A stretch of 50,738 bases of DNA. Origin: a bacterium (GTDB taxonomy: Bacteria; Patescibacteriota; Patescibacteriia; PEXW01). Position 1 is the stretch's first letter; every line of letters begins with the position of its first letter. The DNA lies in the NCBI GenBank assembly GCA_030689605.1, contig JAUYFT010000026.1:1-50738 (forward strand). The letters run 5' to 3'. Position numbers and translations under genes: made by a program. Below the pieces are notes generated by a model, which saw nothing but the letters and a program-made list of their open reading frames with translations, did no database searches and was not told where the DNA came from. Below are positions 16,697-50,084 of this stretch, piece by piece.

Positions 16697-17707
16697 ATGG
16701 ATACAAATTCATTGAAAATTATTTTTGGACCATCCTGCGCGCCGTCGCTACGGAAAAGCGTCATTTCGAAAATCAATTGGCTCGCCGACCGACAGCACTT
16801 CACCCACATACCCTGGCAAGACCACCGATTCGCCGATGGCGAATTCCTACCGCAGATTCTGGAGAATGTCCGAGGGAATGACGTATTCATCATCCAGCCA
16901 ACCAACCCACCCGAAGAGAACTTCAAGTACGTGAAGATGCTCGCCCAGGCGGCGGCATTAGCCTCCGCCAAAAGCGTTACGGTGGTTCTGCCCTACCATA
17001 GGGATCTGCGACAAGATCGGAAGGATCGTCCACGCGTAGCGGTGACGGCAAAACTCTCGCTCCGAGAGATTGAATGTTCCATGACGGCAGCATCGTCTCG
17101 GCATATCATGTTCTTCCACCCGCACTTCAGTCAGGTTATCGGCTTCGTTGACGTTACCTGCGATCTACTCTACCCAACGGCCATATTCTTCGAGTACATG
17201 CAACGGCAGTTCGGCGATCGTCTGAAGCACGTAGTGCCAGCTGGTGCCGATACCGGCGCGGCGGGTTTAGCAGCCCGGTACGCGAAGCTCATCAACACCG
17301 ATTCTTTCGCCGTGGGGTACAAGATTCGGGACAAGAACGATTCCGTAAGCTTCCGTGACATCATTGGAGATATCGACGGGAAAATCGTTGCCGTGGTCGA
17401 CGACATGATCGATACGGGTGGTACACTCTGCAAGTTCATCCAAAAAGCAAACGAAAAAGGCGCCCAGGAAATTTATGCGTTTGCCACGCACGCCATCCTG
17501 GCCGGAGATGCAATCAGCAAGCTGCAGGAAGTTGCAGCAAAAACCTGTTTGAAAAAAGTCATTCTCACAAACAGTATCAATAACGAGCAGCGAGACCTTA
17601 ATCACGACCTCTTCGAGGTGCTGGATTGCGGCCCGTTGATTGGCGAGGCCATCTGGCGCACGCACGTTGGCGGATCGATCTCCGAGATTGCTGGTGCCTT
17701 CGCGTAA
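16697..17707 (+). CDS. prs: Ribose-phosphate pyrophosphokinase
   Basis: PRPP-binding loop VAVVDDMIDTGGTL. Good SD (AAAGGAGAG) upstream of the ATG. Confidence 0.9.
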   Translation: MDTNSLKIIFGPSCAPSLRKSVISKINWLADRQHFTHIPWQDHRFADGEFLPQILENVRGNDVFIIQPTNPPEENFKYVKMLAQAAALASAKSVTVVLPYHRDLRQDRKDRPRVAVTAKLSLREIECSMTAASSRHIMFFHPHFSQVIGFVDVTCDLLYPTAIFFEYMQRQFGDRLKHVVPAGADTGAAGLAARYAKLINTDSFAVGYKIRDKNDSVSFRDIIGDIDGKIVAVVDDMIDTGGTLCKFIQKANEKGAQEIYAFATHAILAGDAISKLQEVAAKTCLKKVILTNSINNEQRDLNHDLFEVLDCGPLIGEAIWRTHVGGSISEIAGAFA

Positions 17708-17939
17708 ACAGACCGATATAGTAACTGTCCTGTATCTACAGCCCGACCCTTACACGGCCGGGCTTTACTTTTTCTCTGGGGTTCCCGACGGTGCGGCGCG
17801 CAGGAGCGAAGCGATGAGCACGCGCCGTTGGGGTAAAGCGAGGCTTTCCTGCCGTACGGCGGGAAAACGAACTGCCCCGAACCACTCGCTTCGCTCGGGT
17901 ACAGGGCATGCACCAAAAGTTCTCTTTAGAGATGGCGTG

Positions 17940-17994
17940 CCATGCACCCGAACAGCACCGGCCTATAGGACGGTGCGTCGTGAGTGGTGCATGG
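17940..17994 (-). other. Conserved tRNA 3'-trailer hairpin (tRNA-Arg copy) that pairs with the CCA end
   Basis: CCATGCACC (17940-48) pairs with GGTGCATGG (17986-94), and 17992-94 is the encoded CCA. It is homologous to 45170-45201. Confidence 0.7.
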
Positions 17995-18068
17995 TGCGCC
18001 CGGCAGGAGTTGAACCTGCGACCTTATGGACCGGAACCATACGCTCTATCCAGCTGAGCTACGGGCGC
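17992..18068 (-). tRNA. tRNA-Arg (anticodon CCG), CCA encoded
   Basis: The reverse complement GCGCCCGTAGCTCAGCTGGATAGAGCGTATGGTTCCGGTCCATAAGGTCGCAGGTTCAACTCCTGCCGGGCGCACCA folds as a cloverleaf. Anticodon loop is TTCCGGT. Confidence 0.9.
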
Positions 18069-19543: not shown

Positions 19544-20313
19544 GCCTTTAGCCCTGCATCCGAGTCCCGCTCGGACGGGACGAGTGGTGCGGGGGCGCGA
19601 CTCTGTAGGAACCGGCTCACGGTGCCCACATCGTCGGGCGAGCCGAAGTCTTTCCAGTAATCTTGGATAGTCTGGATGCGCACCTTCCCCTGGCGGGAGA
19701 GTTCGGTCACGGCGTCCGTGAGGTAGTATTCATTCTTCGGTGGTGTGGGCTGCACGCGGTCGCAGGCACCAAAAATTTCGGGCGTGAAGACGAACAAGCC
19801 CGTGTTGATGAGCTTCGAACCGACATCGTGGTCGGGCTTCTCGATGATCTCCTGCAGCTTGCCCTCGACGTCGGGGATGAGCACGCCGTACTTCTGGTAG
19901 TCCTCCCGCGGCAGCGCGCCAACGTAGCAGTTGCCGTCATCGCGGTTCATGGCCTTCAGATCTCGAACCGAGTAGAGGTTATCACCATACAGCGCGAGGA
20001 AGGCATGCCCATTCGTGGCTTCCCGCGCCGCCATGACTGGGATCGCGGTACCATACTTGGCCTCACCCATCACGGCGAACTGGTTCACTAGAGTAATTGG
20101 GTGCGGGTAAGTCCTAACGAACTCCTCGATGTGCTGGCTCAAGTGCCCAACCACAACGACGATCTTCTCGTACCCGGCGGTGCGGAGATTTTCCAGGAGG
20201 TGCCACAAAAAAGGCTGCCCATTCACCTCGATCATGTGCTTGGGCTTGTCCTTGGCTAGCTCTTTCATGCGCGTGCCCTTGCCGGCCGCAGAAATAATGA
20301 CGGTTTTGATCAT
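19540..20313 (-). CDS. Sugar-phosphate nucleotidyltransferase
   Basis: N-terminal IISAAGKGTRMKEL (G-x-G-T-R) and a length typical of the NTP_transferase fold. Confidence 0.85.
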   Translation of the reverse strand: MIKTVIISAAGKGTRMKELAKDKPKHMIEVNGQPFLWHLLENLRTAGYEKIVVVVGHLSQHIEEFVRTYPHPITLVNQFAVMGEAKYGTAIPVMAAREATNGHAFLALYGDNLYSVRDLKAMNRDDGNCYVGALPREDYQKYGVLIPDVEGKLQEIIEKPDHDVGSKLINTGLFVFTPEIFGACDRVQPTPPKNEYYLTDAVTELSRQGKVRIQTIQDYWKDFGSPDDVGTVSRFLQSRAPAPLVPSERDSDAGLKA

Positions 20314-22963: not shown

Positions 22964-23049
22964 TGCTTAGGCATGCTATATTCTCCCTATGCAATTCAAG
23001 CTCCCCGAACCACTCGCTCTGCTCGGGTTTAGGGCAGGCCAGCCACACC

Positions 23050-25080
23050 ATGAAGTTTAAGCTGCATTCTCCATTTAAGCCGACCGGGGATCAACCCCAA
23101 GCCATTGCCAAGCTCACCAAGGGTGTGGAGCGGGGTTTGCGCGCCCAGACGTTGCTCGGTGTCACCGGCTCGGGCAAGACGTTTACCATGGCCAATGTCA
23201 TTGCCAATACTCAACGGCCGACGCTCGTCATCTCCCACAACAAGACCCTGGCCGCGCAGCTAGCCAGTGAGTTTGAAGAGTTCTTCCCCGACAACGCCGT
23301 GCACTACTTCGTCTCGTACTACGACTACTACCAGCCCGAGGCATACATTGCCAAGTCCGACACTTACATTGAGAAAGAAACGGACATTAATGAGGAAATT
23401 GACCGCCTGCGCCACGCTAGCACGCAGGCCGTGCTCTCGCGACGGGATGTGATTATTGTCGCTTCCGTTTCTTGCATCTACGGCCTCGGCTCCCCGGCCG
23501 AGTACCGCCGCGGCGTCATCACCTTAAAGAAGGGTCAGACCATGAAGCGCGCCGACCTCCTGAAACAACTCATCGCCATGAAGTTTGAACGCCGCACCTT
23601 GGACATCTGGCGTGGTGCTTTCCGCGTCCTCGGCGATGTACTAGAAATTTTCCCGACCGCGTCCGAGGACCGTATGCTCCGCATCCAGTTCTACGGCAAC
23701 GACATTGAAAAAATCGAGGAGCTTGACGCGCTCACGGGAAAAAATATTACCTTGCTGGAAAGCGTGGACATCTACCCGAACACGCAGTACGTCACTGACC
23801 CGAACGAGACCGAACGCGCGCTCAAGCAAATGGAGAAAGATTTGAAAGAGCGCGTCACCTTTTTCAAAGCCCACGACAAGCCCCTGGAAGCCGAGCGCAT
23901 TGAGCAGCGGACGCGCTTCGATTTGGAAATGATGCGCACCACCGGCTTTGCGCCAGGCATCGAGAACTACTCCCGCTACTTTGACGGCCGCCAGCCGGGC
24001 ACGCCGCCATACACGCTCATGGACTTCTTCCCGAAAGACTACCTGCTCATGATCGACGAGTCGCACATGACTATTCCGCAAATTGGGGGGATGTACGAAG
24101 GCGACAAGTCCCGCAAGCAAGCGCTGGTAAACTACGGCTTCCGCCTGCCCGCAGCGTTCGACAACCGACCCTTGAAGTTCGGTGAGTTCGAGGGCAAAAT
24201 CAACCAGATGGTGTTCACGTCTGCCACACCAGCGAAGTACGAGAAGGAGAAGAGCCAGAGTGTCGTGGAACAAGTCATCCGGCCCACGGGCTTGCTGGAC
24301 CCGGATATTGAAGTTAAGCCCACGAAAAACCAGGTGGACGACCTGGTGGAGCAAATCCGAAAACGGGTGGAAAAAGGCCAACGTGTGCTAGTGACGACAC
24401 TCACCAAGCGCATTGCCGAAGACCTGACCGACTACCTCAAAGACCTGGACATCAAAGTGCAGTACCTGCACTCGGATGTGGACACCTTCGACCGTTTGGA
24501 AATCCTGCGCAGTTTACGCACCGGGGAAATAGACGTTGTGATCGGCATTAACCTACTACGCGAAGGCTTGGATTTACCAGAAGTGTCCTTGGTTGCCATC
24601 CTCGACGCGGATAAAGAAGGTTTCTTGCGTTCGGACGTGGCGCTCATCCAAACCATGGGCCGCGGCGCCCGGCACGTGGAAGGCCAGGTAATCATGTACG
24701 CCGATCGCCGCACGGGCTCGATGGAACGGGCAATATCCGAAACCGCCCGCCGCCGCAAAATCCAAAAAGCCTACAACACCAAACACGGCATTACCCCAGC
24801 GGGCATTACTAAAGCTATCCGCGAATCGCGCTTGGCCGGCAAGCAGAAACCGCAAGACGAGAAGCCAATCATCGATCCAAAATCCATTCCCAAAGACGAA
24901 CTCCCACACATCCTGCACGACCTGGAGAATCAAATGGCCTTAGCCGCGGCAAACTTGGAGTTTGAACGCGCAGCCAACATCCGCGACCAGATTACTTTGC
25001 TCAAGGGCTACAAGCTTTACCCTGCATCGAATGGTGCAGGGCGCCAGCGAGGCTTCGGTAAAAGACGAAAGCGAGGGTAA
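23050..25080 (+). CDS. uvrB: Excinuclease ABC subunit B
   Basis: MKFKLHSPFKPTGDQPQAI, GVTGSGKT, IDESH, and the UVR motif LEFERAANIRDQI. ATG 23050 is preferred over the TTG at 22957. Confidence 0.97.
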   Translation: MKFKLHSPFKPTGDQPQAIAKLTKGVERGLRAQTLLGVTGSGKTFTMANVIANTQRPTLVISHNKTLAAQLASEFEEFFPDNAVHYFVSYYDYYQPEAYIAKSDTYIEKETDINEEIDRLRHASTQAVLSRRDVIIVASVSCIYGLGSPAEYRRGVITLKKGQTMKRADLLKQLIAMKFERRTLDIWRGAFRVLGDVLEIFPTASEDRMLRIQFYGNDIEKIEELDALTGKNITLLESVDIYPNTQYVTDPNETERALKQMEKDLKERVTFFKAHDKPLEAERIEQRTRFDLEMMRTTGFAPGIENYSRYFDGRQPGTPPYTLMDFFPKDYLLMIDESHMTIPQIGGMYEGDKSRKQALVNYGFRLPAAFDNRPLKFGEFEGKINQMVFTSATPAKYEKEKSQSVVEQVIRPTGLLDPDIEVKPTKNQVDDLVEQIRKRVEKGQRVLVTTLTKRIAEDLTDYLKDLDIKVQYLHSDVDTFDRLEILRSLRTGEIDVVIGINLLREGLDLPEVSLVAILDADKEGFLRSDVALIQTMGRGARHVEGQVIMYADRRTGSMERAISETARRRKIQKAYNTKHGITPAGITKAIRESRLAGKQKPQDEKPIIDPKSIPKDELPHILHDLENQMALAAANLEFERAANIRDQITLLKGYKLYPASNGAGRQRGFGKRRKRG

Positions 25081-45000: not shown

Positions 45001-45036
45001 CCCAGCCCCGCGCGTGCGGGGCTGGTTTTGTTTTTT
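45001..45036 (+). terminator. Rho-independent terminator
   Basis: CCAGCCCCGC-GCGT-GCGGGGCTGG followed by TTTTGTTTTTT. Confidence 0.85.
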
Positions 45037-45169
45037 ATGAATGGGATCCCCGCGAAGTTGGCGGGAACAGCCTGCCCTGAACCAGTCGACCATTGGTCTC
45101 CGATTCAGGGCATGAACCACTTCTCTGACACTCACTTGCTTACGAGTATTGACGAATTTTTCTGGCTCG

Positions 45170-45201
45170 CCATGAACCCGAACGAAGTGAGTGGTTCATG
45201 G
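45170..45201 (-). other. Conserved tRNA 3'-trailer hairpin (tRNA-Leu copy)
   Basis: CCATGAACC (45170-78) pairs with GGTTCATGG (45193-201). Flanking blocks GCCATGNACCCGAAC and GTGAGTGGTNCATGGTGC are shared with the Arg copy. Confidence 0.7.
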
Positions 45202-45283
45202 TGCCCAGGAGAGGACTCGAACCTCCACGCCTTGCGGCACGAGGTCCTAAACCTCGCGTGTATACCAATTTCACCACCTGGGC
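45199..45283 (-). tRNA. tRNA-Leu (anticodon UAG), long variable arm, CCA encoded
   Basis: Reverse complement is GCCCAGGTGGTGAAATTGGTATACACGCGAGGTTTAGGACCTCGTGCCGCAAGGCGTGGAGGTTCGAGTCCTCTCCTGGGCACCA. Anticodon loop is TTTAGGA. Confidence 0.9.
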
Positions 45284-45289
45284 TTAAAT

Positions 45290-45544
45290 TTATATATTTT
45301 GTAAAGTGAACTTCAACATTGCCCGTAACGTATATTTCCCCTTGCTGGATTTTAAATACCTTTCTCTTTTTTCGGCGTCTAACTTATTGTTAAAGGCCTC
45401 GTAAAAAATCAGCTTCACCGGCAATCTATTTTTCGTAAATGGACTCTTCCCTTTCTTGTGTTCAGCAAGCCTCCTTTTCAAGTCCAAGGTCATGCCACAG
45501 TAAAGCTGTTTGTTTGATAATTGTAAGATGTAAATATAATGCAT
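45290..45544 (-). CDS. GIY-YIG nuclease-family protein
   Basis: MHYIYILQLSNKQLYCGMTLDLKRRLAEHKKGK...EKRERYLK, strongly AT-rich. ATG 45544 is preferred because the ORF-track GTG start lies in tRNA-derived sequence. Confidence 0.75.
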   Translation of the reverse strand: MHYIYILQLSNKQLYCGMTLDLKRRLAEHKKGKSPFTKNRLPVKLIFYEAFNNKLDAEKRERYLKSSKGKYTLRAMLKFTLQNI

Positions 45545-45549
45545 ATTTT

Positions 45550-45631
45550 GCGCGTATACCACCCAGCACCACTAAAGGGTGCTGGGTAGCCATGAACCTT
45601 TAGTGGTTCATGGCAATTTCACCACCTGGGC
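45550..45631 (-). pseudogene. tRNA-Leu 5' fragment (about positions 1-30) interrupted by a 52-nt double hairpin
   Basis: 45614-45631 is identical to 45266-45283 (tRNA positions 1-18). 45550-45561 (GCGCGTATACCA) matches 45255-45267 apart from a 2-nt indel. The insert spans 45562-45613. Confidence 0.75.
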
Positions 45632-45661
45632 ATAGCCCTAGCCTACCCACCCCGCCTCCTC

Positions 45662-45690: not shown

Positions 45691-46727
45691 CCCTCTCGCT
45701 AGTTACGGAGGTTTCTTCTCTGACCCCGCACCCTGCATGTGTAACTCTATCCTTAATTCCGAAGGCCAAGGCGGCTAACACACGTCCCTATTTTTGGAAC
45801 CGGTGTCGTCCCGCCCCAAGCCGCGGGATTTTTGTTTCCCAGCAGAGGCCGTCCTGAGCGTAAGTCGAAGGATCCCTCTGGCGAGAAGCCCACAGCAGCT
45901 CGAACGTTACCAACTGCATAGTGCACGAACATGAATGTATAAGAAAGGTAACGAATAAGCATAAGTAAGTTAGTCTCGGAAATTTCCACACGGTAAGCTG
46001 CAGCCGCAGCGAAGCGTGTCGGACCGTTTCTGGAGACGGGTGACGACCGGTCCGCGCTCAACGTTGATGCGCGCGTGCCATGGTCGCCGCACAAGGGCGT
46101 ACGGTGGATGCCTTGGTACAATATGGCGATGAAGGACGTCGCAGCCTGCGAAAAGCTCCGGGGAGGTGGCAAGCAACCTTTGATCCGGAGATATCCGAAT
46201 GGGGAAACCCTCTACACGGAATGGTGTAGAACGCTATCCTGAATACATAGGGGTAGTGAGCGAACCTGGGGAATTGAAACATCTTAGTACCCAGAGGAAG
46301 AGAAAAAAATGCTGCAGTTATTTGAACAGTGCATCAGCAATGGTGCGCGGTTCATATTCCTGTGGTTATTCCCTGAGTAGTGGCGAGCGAAACGGGAACA
46401 GCTAAAATTTTCGTAGTGTACCCAGCCGCAAGGTTGGGAGAGACGCGTAAGCGGCTGCTACGGAGACGTTGCGAGATGATGTTATCAGAGCTTACGACTC
46501 TGAGGTAGGGACCACGCGGAGTGGTTCTCGGTGTGCCTGCGCAAGCGGGTACAGTGAGAATTATTTCGTTGCGCGTAGTCGAACCGCCTGGAACGGCGGG
46601 CCAAAGACGGTGATAGCCCGGTAGGCGAAACGCGCGAAGCTCTACGACATTTTTCTCGAGTACCGTGGGACACGTGAAATCCTATGGGAACCCGGGACGA
46701 CTACCGTCCCAAAGCTAAATACATATT

Positions 46728-46775
<48 letters not shown>

Positions 46776-48197
46776 GGAAGGGGGATGAAATAGTCTCTGA
46801 AACCGTATGCTTACAAACAGTCGTAGCCCCGCCTCGGCGGGGTCACGGCGTGCCTATTGAAGAATGAACCAACGAGTTTGTTCAGCGGAGTGGGCTAAGG
46901 CCGAGAAGGCCGGAGCCATAGTGAAAGCGAGCGTGTCAAAAGCGCGTACTATAGTTTGAAATGTATTCCGCCGCAAGGCGGACTGCATCTCTTTCTATAA
47001 ACATTCCGTTGACAAGACCCGAAGCCGGGTGATCTACCCATGACCAGGTTGAATCCCGCCGAAAGGCGGGAGGAGGACCGAACCCGTGAGCTGTGCAAAA
47101 CTCTGGGATGAGTTGTGGGTAGCGGAGAAATTCCAATCGAACTCGGCGATAGCTGGTTCTCCTCGAAATAGCTTTAGGGCTAGCGTGGCGTGTTTCCCTG
47201 CGGGGGTAGAGCGACTGAATGGACGTTGATGGCGAAAGCCTACAACGACCAACCAAACTCCGAATACCGCAGGATCTAACGCTGCAGTCAGTCCGTGAGG
47301 TCCAAGCTTCACTGGACGAGAGGGGAAGAACCCATGACCTCCATCTAAGGTCCCGAAGTGGCCGCTCAGTGGTAAAGGTGGTGGGGCGATTGAGACAACG
47401 AGGAGGTTGGCTTAGAAGCAGCCATCCTTTAAAGAAAGCGTAATAGCTCACTCGTCAAATTGCCCTGCGCCGAAAATGTATCGGGGCTCAAGCGGCCCAC
47501 CGAAGTTGAGGATGCCTCGTCGCAAGACGGGGCGTGGTAGAGGAGCGTTCCCAGCAGCGACGAAGCGAGCGTGGAAACTCTCGTGGAGCGCTGGGAAGTG
47601 CGAATGTTGGTATAAGTAACAGAAATGCGGGTGAGAACCCCGCACACCGAAAGTCTAAGGTTTCCTGGGCAACGAAAATCGTCCCAGGGTGAGTCGGTCC
47701 TAAGTCGAGGCCGAAAGGCGTAGATGATGGAGAGCAGGTTAATATTCCTGCACCACGTGATGATTATCCTGACGAGGACACATTTGTGAATTACGCACGG
47801 GATTCGGTTATGCCCGTCCCGCAAGGGGCAGTGGAAGCCGCAAGGTAACCGCAACGCGTATGCAGCAGGTGTCGAGAAAAGTCGTCAGGTTACGTCGTAC
47901 CGTGTCCGTACCGGAAACCGACACAGGTGGACTAGTGTCAACGCACTAAGGTGAACGAGAGAACCCTGGTTTAGGAACTCGGCAAAAAAGCGGCCGTACC
48001 TTCGGTATATGGCCTGCCCCGCCTCTGGCGGGGCTGCAACTAATGATATCAAGTGACTGTTTACCAAAAACACAGGTCCCTGCAAAGCCGAAAGGCAACG
48101 TATAGGGGCTGATGCCTGGCCAGTGTCAGAACGTTAAGGGGAGAGGTGCAAGCCTTGATCCGAAGCGCTGACGAACGCCGGCGATAACTATAATCGT

Positions 48198-48961
48198 TAA
48201 CGACGCTACCGCCACTCATGAAATGGGTGGCAAAAAAGTCAGGGCGATTGTAAAATTCGACTATATGCTGGAATAGCTGTCCCCTCACAGGGGTGAAGTA
48301 TCGTGTGCTACCGAGTAGGTAACAATGCACACGTGCAGCCAATCAGCAGGAAAGACTCCCTAGAATATGCCAAATACCGTGAAAGCAATCCTGACTTCCT
48401 TTCGGGGAAAACGGGAGTTGCTCCACTACTATATTGCGGGACTCGTGGATGGTGAAGGCAGTTTCAGTGTGGCGGTTATCCGCCATCCTTCTCAAACATT
48501 TGGCTGGATGATTAATCCATGCTTCCAAGTGTACCAACACGAAGCACACCGTGAAATTCTTGAACTTTGCCAGTGGGTATTTAAAACCGGCAGCATCTAC
48601 CGCAAGTCTGGGACTAACCATGTTCTGAACTTCAGTATTGATGCTCGCCGCAATCTCTTGGAGAAGGTTATCCCCTTCTTCGACCGGTACCCGCTCATCG
48701 TAAAGCGCGATGCCTATAAATCGTTCCGCACGATTACGAAAGCCATGGAACAAGGCGAGCATCAAACCCGCGAGGGTTTCTGCCGCTTGGTAACGCTGGC
48801 TTTCACGATGAACCAGCAAGGCAAAGGGCGAAAGCATACCCTCGAGTACATCCTCGAGTCGGTAAAAAGTGCTCATGGAGAATCCTCAGAGACTTTACGT
48901 CGAACCCCGCAGGGGCGGGGATGATAAAGTCCACGACCGTAGCGATACGGGTTAGAAAAAG
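48198..48961 (+). mobile_element. Group-I-like intron in 23S at E. coli position ~1923/1924 (H69 3' strand)
   Basis: Exon 1 ends AACTATAATCGT and exon 2 starts CCTAAGGTAGCGAAATTCC. Joining them restores H69 (GGCGA/TCGTC). Exon 1 ends in U and the insert ends in G. AGG-GCGATT (48241-49) can pair with exon 2 CCT (P10) and exon 1 AATCGT (P1, with a U.G pair). Confidence 0.72.
48367..48924 (+). CDS. LAGLIDADG homing endonuclease (single-motif type)
   Basis: YIAGLVDGEGSF motif. It is 185 aa and lies wholly inside the 23S insertion. Confidence 0.88.
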   Translation: MPNTVKAILTSFRGKRELLHYYIAGLVDGEGSFSVAVIRHPSQTFGWMINPCFQVYQHEAHREILELCQWVFKTGSIYRKSGTNHVLNFSIDARRNLLEKVIPFFDRYPLIVKRDAYKSFRTITKAMEQGEHQTREGFCRLVTLAFTMNQQGKGRKHTLEYILESVKSAHGESSETLRRTPQGRG

Positions 48962-49017
<56 letters not shown>

Positions 49018-49528
49018 AACTTGATAACTGTCTCAACCAGGGACTCGGTGAAATTACAAGACGAGTAAAGATGCTCGTTACCCGCAATTAGACGAAAAGA
49101 CCCCATGAAGCTTTACTGTAGTTTGGCATTGTTGACGGGTGTGTGCTGCTGAGAATACGTGGGAGACTTTGAAGTTCTACCTCTGGGTAGGATGGAGTCA
49201 CCAGTGAAATACCACGCTGTGCTCGCACGTCATCTAACGGCATCCCGTTATCCGGGATCCGGACAGTGCCTGATGGGCAGTTTAACTGGGGCGGTTGCCT
49301 CCTAAACGGTAACGGAGGCGTTTACAAAGGTTGGCTACGCACGAATGGAAACCGTGCGCGTCGGGCAAACCCACAAGCCAGCTTGACTGCAAGACCTACA
49401 AGTCGCGCAGCACCGAAAGGTGAAGTTAGTGATCCGACGATCCATTGTAGGATGGTCGAAGCTCAACGGATAAAAGTTACTCTGGGGATAACAGGCTGAT
49501 CGGGTCCAAGAGTCCACATCGACGACCC

Positions 49529-49587
<59 letters not shown>

Positions 49588-49615
49588 TGGCTGTTCGCCA
49601 ATTAAAGCGGTACGT

Positions 49616-49652
<37 letters not shown>

Positions 49653-50084
49653 CTATCTATTGCGGGCGCAGATATTTGCGAAGACTCTTCCCTAGTACGA
49701 GAGGACCGGGAAGGACGAACCTCTGGTGGATGGGTTGTTGTACCAACAGCATTGCCCAGTAGCTACGTTCGGTACGGATAAACGCTGAAAGCATATAAGC
49801 GTGAAGCCGCCTTCTAGATTAGATATCGTTATGAGCTCCCCGGGAGACTACCGGGTTGATAGGCTCTACGTGTAAGACCCGTAAGGGTTTGAGCGGAGGA
49901 GTACTAATCGAGCCAGCGGCAACCATGGGACGCGCTTTCGCAGACCCGGCGAGCAATCGCTGGGCTATCGGAGAGCGTGCACCACAGTCACCCGTTTCCA
50001 AAAGCGGTTCGTAACCTGTACCATTTCCGGTGCAGGGTAAACCTTTCACTTATACATATGTCATTGAAATTTCCCGCCCTCTTT

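Follow-up and report, generated by a model that had tools for sequence, protein, structure and literature searches.

What is a hairpin doing when its stem begins with the last three bases of a tRNA gene? The question is raised by the window, by which is meant the whole stretch of 50,738 nucleotides analysed here, in which the genes for tRNA-Arg(ccg) and tRNA-Leu(tag) each run directly into such a structure. A preliminary description of this DNA offered two roles, namely a 3'-processing or CCA-masking RNA element, and a small palindromic mobile element that targets CCA/TGG. The analysis set out below makes it most likely that the hairpins are wandering DNA and not a built-in tRNA-processing signal.

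Both tRNA genes lie on the minus strand. The gene for tRNA-Arg(ccg), whose CCA is encoded, occupies 17992-18068 (-) and was identified by ARAGORN and by the Rfam tRNA model (67.4 bits); tRNA-Leu(tag), at 45199-45283 (-), was identified by the same two means. Fused to the Arg gene is a CCA-type hairpin, hp1, at 17940-17994 (-) with the stem CCATGCACC...GGTGCATGG, a long variant that carries an extra apical hairpin. The hp1 of the Leu gene is a short variant at 45170-45201 (-) with the stem CCATGAACC...GGTTCATGG. Both stems end on the right in TGG, which is complementary to the tRNA CCA, and stem bases 1-3, read in tRNA sense, are the CCA of the tRNA itself. In that sense the CCA of the Arg gene is followed by TGCACC ACTCAC...GTTCGG GTGCATGG CACGCCA, and the CCA of the Leu gene by TGAACC ACTCAC TTCG TTCGG GTTCATGG CGAGCCA. 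Each trailer thus ends in a tail with a second CCA: CACGCCA(T) at 17932-17939 (-) behind Arg, which on the complementary strand forms a tag GGCGTG located 5' of the palindrome, and CGAGCCA(G) at 45162-45169 (-) behind Leu. What had been described for the two copies is borne out: they share the encoded CCA, their flanks GCCATGNACCCGAAC and GTGAGTGGTNCATGGTGC are conserved, the Arg copy has an additional internal hairpin, and a single compensatory difference (C:G in Arg vs A:T in Leu) separates their stems. The Arg hairpin folds with -29.4 kcal/mol (z = -3.0), and the z-score of the Leu hairpin is -2.4. The 9-mer CCATGNACC occurs 10 times in the window vs 1.46 expected, and none of 100 shuffles contained 10 or more occurrences.

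Neither hairpin is followed by a T-run, on which the sequence and a terminator scan agree, and the scan found no intrinsic terminator at either (the U-run is absent after both); a classical intrinsic terminator is rejected on these grounds. A terminator of the classical kind lies near the Leu locus, at 45002-45035 (+). At the gathering threshold Rfam 15 returned matches to tRNA, 23S, and 5S alone, and a permissive Rfam scan of 17700-18000 gave nothing relevant. The hairpins match no known Rfam 15 family.

The hairpins, here called type A, have relatives throughout the genome under study (G000; 644 kb in 33 contigs, 83% complete). A covariance model, R1, was built from an alignment (A1) of 20 cleanly aligning copies from this genome. 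It matches the Arg hp1 at 17932-17994 (-) with E = 3.5e-12 and the Leu hp1 at 45162-45201 (-) with E = 9.5e-14, and it also detects an inverted partner, hp2, at each locus. At the Arg locus hp2 (CCCCGAACC...GGGTACAGGG) spans 17875-17916 (+), with an R1 match at 17875-17914 (+) and E = 1.5e-8, and the hp1 arm recurs a third time after it, as CATGCACC. Arg hp1 and hp2 form a REPIN-like inverted pair. At the Leu locus hp2 (CCCTGAACC...GATTCAGGG) spans 45075-45118 (+), matches R1 with E = 1.1e-8, and folds with -28.8 kcal/mol (z = -4.7). The sequence CATGAACC after it is a half copy, and the half copy that had been noted near the Leu hairpin is present (45110-45120). Whole inverted-pair units reach z = -5.3 and -5.8, the former being the Arg unit at 17870-17994, which folds with -60.7 kcal/mol.

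Other copies and other repeats accompany these pairs. A different repeat, type D (GTTCGTTTT...GGGAACCCC; 17778-17872 (-)), shows many matches of query positions 655-723 and is chained straight onto the ...GGGGCA end of hp2 at the Arg locus; in relatives type D occupies tRNA trailers and begins immediately 3' of the CCA in many tRNAs. A minimal inverted pair of short hairpins lies at 45559-45613 (-) and reads CCATGAACC-ACTAAA-GGTTCATGG, CTA, CCCAGCACC-CTTTAGT-GGTGCTGGG. It contains the short third copy at 45590-45613 that had already been seen, and it sits in the D-loop of a tRNA-Leu 5' relic, where it heads a GIY-YIG cassette. Solitary copies are found between two minus-strand genes at 19544-19594 (-) (E = 3.6e-8) and in a divergent intergenic region at 23003-23042 (+) (E = 1e-9), and a short, weak copy is found at 25012-25041 (-) (E = 0.003).

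Over the whole genome under study, R1 finds about 33 copies. In the taxonomic family, each of the 11 other genomes (11/11) holds 2-40 copies; matches occur in 5 of 29 other families of the class; and a congener, G003, whose whole genome was compared, gives 43 matches. The related records are Patescibacteria MAGs from groundwater (Hainich). A pattern search of G000 recovered type-A copies away from tRNAs with other stems, namely CCCTGAACC/GGTTCAGGG, CCGTGAACC/..CACGG, and CCCTGTACC/GGTACAGGG. Copies are mostly intergenic and about two thirds of them lie away from tRNAs; the solitary ones between co-directional genes are oriented in sense in 18 cases and in antisense in 10.

Pairing in the stem is upheld by compensatory changes. 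Covariation had been claimed from one base pair of two copies; the family as a whole shows far more of it. Among the 20 copies of G000, 96% of cells are paired and compensatory changes occur at 6 of 12 pairs, of which the innermost three (11/46, 14/43, and 15/42) played no part in the selection of copies. The 43 copies of G003 show compensatory changes at 7 of 12 pairs, with 93% of cells paired. The consensus anatomy in tRNA sense is a 9-bp stem CCNTGNACC, a bulged A, and one pair (C-G or G-C), followed inward by a conserved 2x2 internal loop in which TC lies opposite TC, two pairs (GC or AT), a variable tip of 4-30 nt that often contains a further stem, the returning arm, and the tail CARGCC. 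Seen from the complementary strand, the element is a tag GGCYYG, the stem, a tandem G·A loop, and often a GCGAAGC mini-hairpin. At tRNA ends the usual unit consists of hp1, C[AG][AG]GCCA, a non-conserved spacer of 11-60 nt, GGTNCATG, and the inverted hp2, and in almost every case read the N of GGTNCATG agrees with the hp1 stem variant of the same locus. Such inverted doublets occur in nearly all tRNA-fused copies and at tmRNA loci. A second hairpin family, type B (CCAGCC TTCGCTC...GAGCTTCG GCTGG CAAGCCA), likewise starts with CCA and ends in GCCA, and is found on three further tRNAs of G000.

The fusion to tRNA ends is not confined to Arg and Leu: absence from other tRNA trailers had been named as the refuting outcome, and the opposite was found. 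When the trailers of all 27 tRNAs of G000 were extracted, type A was found fused to five (Arg-ccg, Leu-tag, Lys-ttt, Gly-gcc, and Thr-ggt); in G003 it is fused to 8 of 44, which include Ser-cga, Leu-cag, Arg-gcg, Val-tac, Arg-cct, and two tRNA-Ala. The overlap with the CCA is exactly 3 nt, in a single orientation, in 13/13 fused copies of the two genomes. In one subfamily (CCA...TGG...CCA) stem bases 1-3 coincide with the CCA of a tRNA or tmRNA. The tail C[AG][AG]GCCA, with its second CCA, follows 16 of 21 CCA-type copies, whereas a matching triplet follows only 5 of 47 non-CCA copies, no more than after shuffling. Since the second CCA is frequent only with CCA-type copies, it characterises the tRNA-end subfamily and should not be taken for a target duplication of general occurrence; for the non-CCA copies, duplication of a 3-bp target as a rule is rejected at this shuffle-level frequency. 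No common left-flank sequence was seen at the non-tRNA copies.

The CCA fusion is exact yet not conserved among relatives. For example, the trailers of Leu-cag and Arg-cct carry type B in G000 and type A in G003, those of Gly-gcc and Thr-ggt carry type A in G000 and type D in G003, and that of Lys-ttt carries type A in G000 and nothing in G003. The long variant stands behind a different tRNA in each of four genomes: Arg-ccg in G000, Arg-tcg in G001, Gln-ttg in G007, and Arg-gcg in G006. At the orthologous tRNA-Arg(ccg), no fewer than five trailer arrangements are seen among relatives: a type-A pair then type D, type D alone, a terminator then an element with a tRNA 3' relic, another element combination, and, in three relatives, no element. 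Behind tRNA-Leu(tag) relatives have type D or nothing. The tmRNA position is an old one. An inverted pair lies behind tmRNA in G001, G003, G006, and G007, followed by a small GIY-YIG gene and infC, and also, without the GIY-YIG gene, in G032, a genome of another family, so that this position is shared by two genera and one other family. Its age could alternatively indicate a function.

Copies are gained, lost, and exchanged between species. Insertion events were inferred from species-level comparisons; same-species strains with clean empty sites were not found, an exact-match protein look-up retrieved no record, and the nearest metagenome relative of a neighbouring protein is 86% identical. 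In a conserved operon leader, comparison of G001 with G004 reveals a 47-nt insertion that consists of the hairpin only, between the near-identical flanks GTGTAGC and GTGTG, and four other congeners have a full type-A copy at this site. The start of an HMA-domain (metal-binding) gene is uninterrupted in G005, G004, and G001 (MATCDLSLKGMHCASC). In G000 and G006 it is cut after ...GGCATGCAC by the hairpin, which is followed by a spacer of about 35 nt and a new, divergent start MSKTTELSLRGMHCASC. A hairpin also lies between a relic and a rebuilt copy of tRNA-Leu in the window, of tRNA-Lys (C14), of tRNA-Asp in G003, and of tRNA-Pro(ggg) in both genomes. These insertion polymorphisms, together with the multi-copy family, the different tRNAs occupied in sister species, and the copies off tRNAs and inside gene fragments, support the earlier suggestion of a small palindromic mobile element.

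A further instance of exchange involves G009, a genome of another genus. G000 and G009 share, at 94% identity over 434 nt, a block with the 5' relic of tRNA-Leu, the two short hairpins, the GIY-YIG gene, and the complete tRNA-Leu; the tRNA-Leu(tag) gene itself is 100% identical. The two sequences begin to match at tRNA position +1 and part exactly at the CCA, beyond which G009 has type D and G000 the type-A pair. The first stem of the cassette is CCGTGAACC/GGTTCACGG in G009 vs CCATGAACC/GGTTCATGG in G000, a compensatory difference, and the trailer hairpin, at a distance of 400 nt, has the same stem as the G000 version. That the cassette stem agrees with the nearby trailer stem in G000, unlike in G009, suggests copy-to-copy exchange within a genome.

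The two strands of the element are not equivalent. The conserved unpaired bases are TC/TC in tRNA sense and 5'-GA-3'/5'-GA-3' on the complementary strand, where they make a tandem sheared G·A motif with G-C closing pairs. The frequent short tip is GCGAAGC on that strand, and GCGAAGC is a very stable DNA mini-hairpin. Stem mismatches read in tRNA sense are C·A in 33 cases vs G·T in 7, and the C·A mismatches would be G·T wobbles in the complementary strand. This bias is equal in copies that lie in sense (20 vs 5) and in antisense (11 vs 2) to local transcription, so it tracks the orientation of the element and not the transcript; wobbles that follow the direction of transcription are rejected for this reason. 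Finally, a comparison of predicted folds favours the complementary strand: under RNA parameters it is the more stable one in 59 of 68 copies (mean difference -3.8 kcal/mol), and under DNA parameters in 47 of 68, counts that, like the mismatch counts and the p-values of this asymmetry, are overstated because the copies are mutually related. Despite this kinship, the four lines of evidence agree on the complementary strand. In the case of hp1, that strand is the template strand of the tRNA gene and not the pre-tRNA. It therefore appears that the complementary strand would be the one that folds, as single-stranded DNA.

These observations bear directly on the reading in which the hairpin is an element of the tRNA trailer RNA that pairs with the CCA in the transcript and guides or protects 3' maturation, or ends the transcript. 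The exact fusion in tRNA-sense orientation in 13/13 copies is what such an element would show, type B (CCAGCC...GGCTGG CAAGCCA) likewise pairs with the CCA on three more tRNAs, and the tmRNA position is kept across genera. In addition, RNase Z above the curated cut-off was not found in 5 genomes, so tRNA 3' maturation in this lineage must take another route; a homologue of the CCA-adding enzyme is present in the family. However, the hairpin is missing from the orthologous tRNA-Arg(ccg) and tRNA-Leu(tag) of relatives, about two thirds of copies are off tRNAs, with 18 in sense and 10 in antisense to flanking genes, and no U-run follows the hairpin. Pairing of the CCA is not general either: its mean probability is 0.58 vs 0.44 with shuffled flanks in G000 and 0.55 vs 0.46 in G003, and about a third of tRNAs fall below 0.3, so general CCA masking in all pre-tRNAs is not seen. 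In the tRNA-sense strand the internal loop would be weak U·C/C·U, and fused copies carry C·A mismatches, not G·U. The 3'-processing or CCA-masking role proposed earlier is thus improbable, since the same tRNAs go without the hairpin in relatives, masking is not general, and both the conserved unpaired bases and the mismatches point to the complement of the pre-tRNA as the strand that folds better.

The main rival to spread by the elements themselves gives the hairpins a passive part, either as the termini or attachment modules of very small cassettes that integrate or home and restore the gene end they displace, some with a GIY-YIG nuclease, or as microhomology joints that patch imported DNA. 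We regard it as unlikely, although it accounts for the hairpin lying exactly between relic and rebuilt copy at five places (the four tRNAs and the HMA-domain gene), for the inverted pair that heads the GIY-YIG gene behind tmRNA in four genomes, and for the GIY-YIG/tRNA-Leu block shared between genera, with its edges at tRNA +1 and CCA. Most copies have no adjoining relic (a duplication test was positive in about 6 of 68), the tRNA-Leu trailer pair falls outside the transferred block, and the insertion in G001 is a hairpin alone. Of 74 small GIY-YIG genes, only 6 have a copy within 400 nt, and four of these six are one orthologous tmRNA locus; this does not support the nuclease as a general partner and speaks against the cassette reading too. 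Host functions of several kinds have been proposed for classical REPs, and the copies could similarly be binding sites of a chromosomal protein, transcription insulators, or stabilisers of mRNA 3' ends that are kept by selection and not by transposition. Their intergenic location, the modest sense excess between co-directional genes (18 vs 10), the conservation of unpaired bases, and the age of some positions fit this idea; the rapid turnover of occupied sites among congeners, the variation in copy number from 2 to 40 within one genus, and the copies within gene relics and a coding sequence do not, and it seems the least probable of the three.

Membership in a REP/REPIN-like family of palindromic DNA repeats, belonging to a Patescibacteria lineage, is on balance the probable identity of the hairpins. 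Proteobacterial REP, BIME, and REPIN elements, surveyed by Di Nocera et al. 2013 (PMC3733652), bear an unpaired GTAG or CGTC tag, and some REP superfamilies of the CGTC type have no known transposase (PMC3733652). Like them, the elements described here are imperfect palindromes of 30-55 nt in tens of mostly extragenic copies, with an unpaired tag at one end and compensatory stem changes, and like REPINs they frequently form inverted dimers able to fold into a larger hairpin. Unlike them, they have the family tag GGCYYG (CARGCC on the other strand), with neither GTAG nor CGTC present, a conserved tandem-G·A internal loop, and a subfamily fused base-exactly to the CCA of tRNA and tmRNA; they flank no RAYT gene, and three genomes with 24-40 copies each lack RAYT-like genes; and they belong to a Patescibacteria lineage whose genome measures about 0.8 Mb. 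New relative to REP/REPIN are the tag GGCYYG and the habit of docking at CCA ends. A literature search found no description of such elements in Patescibacteria.

Other small elements offer partial parallels. Miniature elements derived from IS200/IS605 have two subterminal hairpins in the same orientation and insert 3' of a fixed tetra- or pentanucleotide. The repeats resemble IS200/IS605 ends and PATEs in that the hairpins apparently act on one DNA strand, that hairpin-flanking bases pair with the junction (TGG with CCA), and that insertion occurs beside a short fixed sequence with no general target duplication. They differ in that the two hairpins of a unit are inverted, that no TnpA or TnpB gene is found between these or next to them, and that the non-tRNA copies have no fixed target sequence. 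Correia (CREE) and ERIC elements, other bacterial MITEs, and the GC-cluster or double-hairpin elements of fungal mitochondria are likewise small, protein-less, inverted-repeat hairpins in spacers, some near tRNA genes. In contrast to these, the present elements show no TA or other target duplication outside the CCA subfamily, and each terminal repeat is itself a hairpin. TIR-type MITEs combine terminal inverted repeats with a target-site duplication of fixed length; the unit described here has inverted ends, the CCA recurs after 16/21 CCA-type copies, and a matching triplet follows 5/47 others, no more often than in shuffled sequence. We know of no description of CCA-end docking for Correia, ERIC, other MITEs, or the fungal mitochondrial elements.

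How such elements move can be outlined in part. Spread or exchange at the DNA level, dependent on the hairpin and catalysed in trans, is in our view the most likely mechanism, and a reasonably probable one. By this mechanism a hairpin-recognising enzyme supplied in trans would spread or recombine the elements. The 3' ends of tRNA and tmRNA genes would be favoured because the terminal CCA doubles as the CCN with which the stem of the element starts, and because insertion there may be harmless. Any effect on the tRNA transcript would be a by-product. Y1 (RAYT-like) genes (PF01797) occur in 8 of 12 genomes and are absent from G003, G006, and G001, which hold 40, 31, and 24 repeat copies. None of the three Y1 genes of G000 is flanked by a type-A copy, and one of them (C28) is flanked by classical GTAG-tagged palindromes. 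A RAYT as the driver is rejected, because three copy-rich genomes have no Y1 gene and the Y1 genes of G000 are not flanked by the repeats. Among the Y1 and small GIY-YIG genes examined, none is a candidate for the mobilising enzyme.

A more far-reaching proposal, which we offer tentatively as plausible but not as probable, is that these hairpins form a hitherto undescribed, protein-less class of elements in Patescibacteria that recognises the 3'-CCA boundary of tRNA and tmRNA genes. The TGG of the element would pair with the CCA on single-stranded DNA, and the element would be moved by a non-RAYT enzyme, possibly a structure-specific nuclease or recombinase. Together with types B and D, this class would turn tRNA ends into the chief site of turnover in these reduced genomes.

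Patescibacteria have very small genomes that are thought to be poor in repeated DNA. Unexpectedly, in this lineage the spacers behind tRNA genes are filled with tiny structured repeats of several families, which pass between species. The repeats can be taken for conserved trailer RNAs of tRNAs, the relics and chimeric tRNAs that go with them can mislead tRNA annotation, and metagenome assemblies are probably broken by them at tRNA loci. If the docking at CCA is a real targeting mechanism, it would give mobile DNA a new means of reaching a safe site, and it would point to a hairpin-specific enzyme.

The 3' ends of tRNA genes in the source genome of the window (G000) carry a second hairpin family, type B, in addition to type A, the REP/REPIN-like palindromic repeat of which a subfamily is fused to the CCA end of tRNA and tmRNA genes. 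Type B has the sequence form CCAGCC TTCGCTC...GAGCTTCG GCTGG CAAGCCA, and its CCA-fused copies lie on three contigs (G000:C7:7064-7110, C10:11902-11950, and C15:11900-11946), where the CCA of tRNA-Arg(cct), tRNA-Leu(cag), and tRNA-Leu(caa) is joined to the hairpin. Since a TC/GC internal-loop motif and a CAAGCCA tail are found in both types, type B is probably a distant relative of type A. Another repeat sited at tRNA CCA ends, type D, is a structured element of ~95-150 nt (GCTCGTTTCG...CGAAGCCTCGCT...GGGGACCCC) found on the minus strand of the window at 17778-17872 and in many tRNA trailers of the congener G003. In at least 10 tRNAs of G003, type D starts immediately 3' of the CCA; alternatively, a hairpin of type A or type B precedes it, and type D then begins where that hairpin ends in ...GGCA/GCCA. 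These starting points indicate that type D and type-A/B elements are chained.

CCA is encoded in nearly all tRNA genes of five family genomes (G000, G003, G006, G007, and G008). A homologue of the CCA-adding enzyme was found in all five, and no RNase Z scored above the curated cut-off in any of them.

An intact tRNA-Pro(ggg), whose leader and trailer form an inverted repeat, sits within a disrupted copy of the same tRNA, and this arrangement is kept in both species (G000:C4:8330-8640; G003:C2:112600-112960). The disrupted outer copy has a hairpin in the anticodon loop of its 5' half and an inverted hairpin close to the T-arm of its 3' half. A tRNA-Lys relic module (G000:C14:9113-9257; locus L002 of the relative G006) opens with the tRNA-Lys T-arm in antisense orientation and closes with the final 25 nt of the tRNA in sense orientation, CCA included; comparable modules with tRNA-Arg relics occur in another relative, G004, and in one metagenome contig. 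ARAGORN missed a tRNA-Lys(ctt)-like gene (G000:C25:2590-2665, minus strand), downstream of which lies a type-A hairpin. Because the 5' acceptor strand of this gene resembles a tRNA-Arg acceptor strand and fails to pair with the gene's 3' end, the gene may encode a chimeric tRNA or be a pseudo-tRNA. Three members of the Ile-Val-Phe-Pro tRNA cluster (G000:C2:2780-4000), namely Pro(tgg), Phe, and Ile(gat), each have a leader complementary to the trailer of the same gene, CCA included (for example, cctcacctctgg ... CCAgaggtgagg); a stem thus encloses each of the three.

A hairpin insertion displaced the initial 12 codons of an HMA-domain (copA-like) gene (G000:C15:2620-2760), leaving a divergent rebuilt start in their place; the gene is uninterrupted in three congeners. 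The 23S rRNA match in the window (46081-49927) spans 3847 nt versus 2925 nt for the model, and therefore the gene contains ~900 nt of insertions. A 175-aa gene resembling RAYT, the Y1 (HUH) transposase linked to REP elements, has an HxH and a C-terminal Y motif (G000:C28:28700-29700) and is flanked by GTAG-tagged palindromes (GGAGTAGAGACTTTAGTCTCT); the arrangement resembles a classical REPtron, here in a member of the Patescibacteria.

The block comprising tRNA-Leu(tag) and the adjacent small GIY-YIG nuclease gene (window 45199-45640) is 94% identical to its counterpart in G009, a genome of another genus in the same family (G009:C4:4700-5132), with 100% identity over the tRNA gene proper; elsewhere in the family, within or outside the genus, the best tRNA-Leu matches reach only ~80-83%. 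This pattern of identity indicates a recent lateral transfer of the entire interrupted tRNA-Leu gene.
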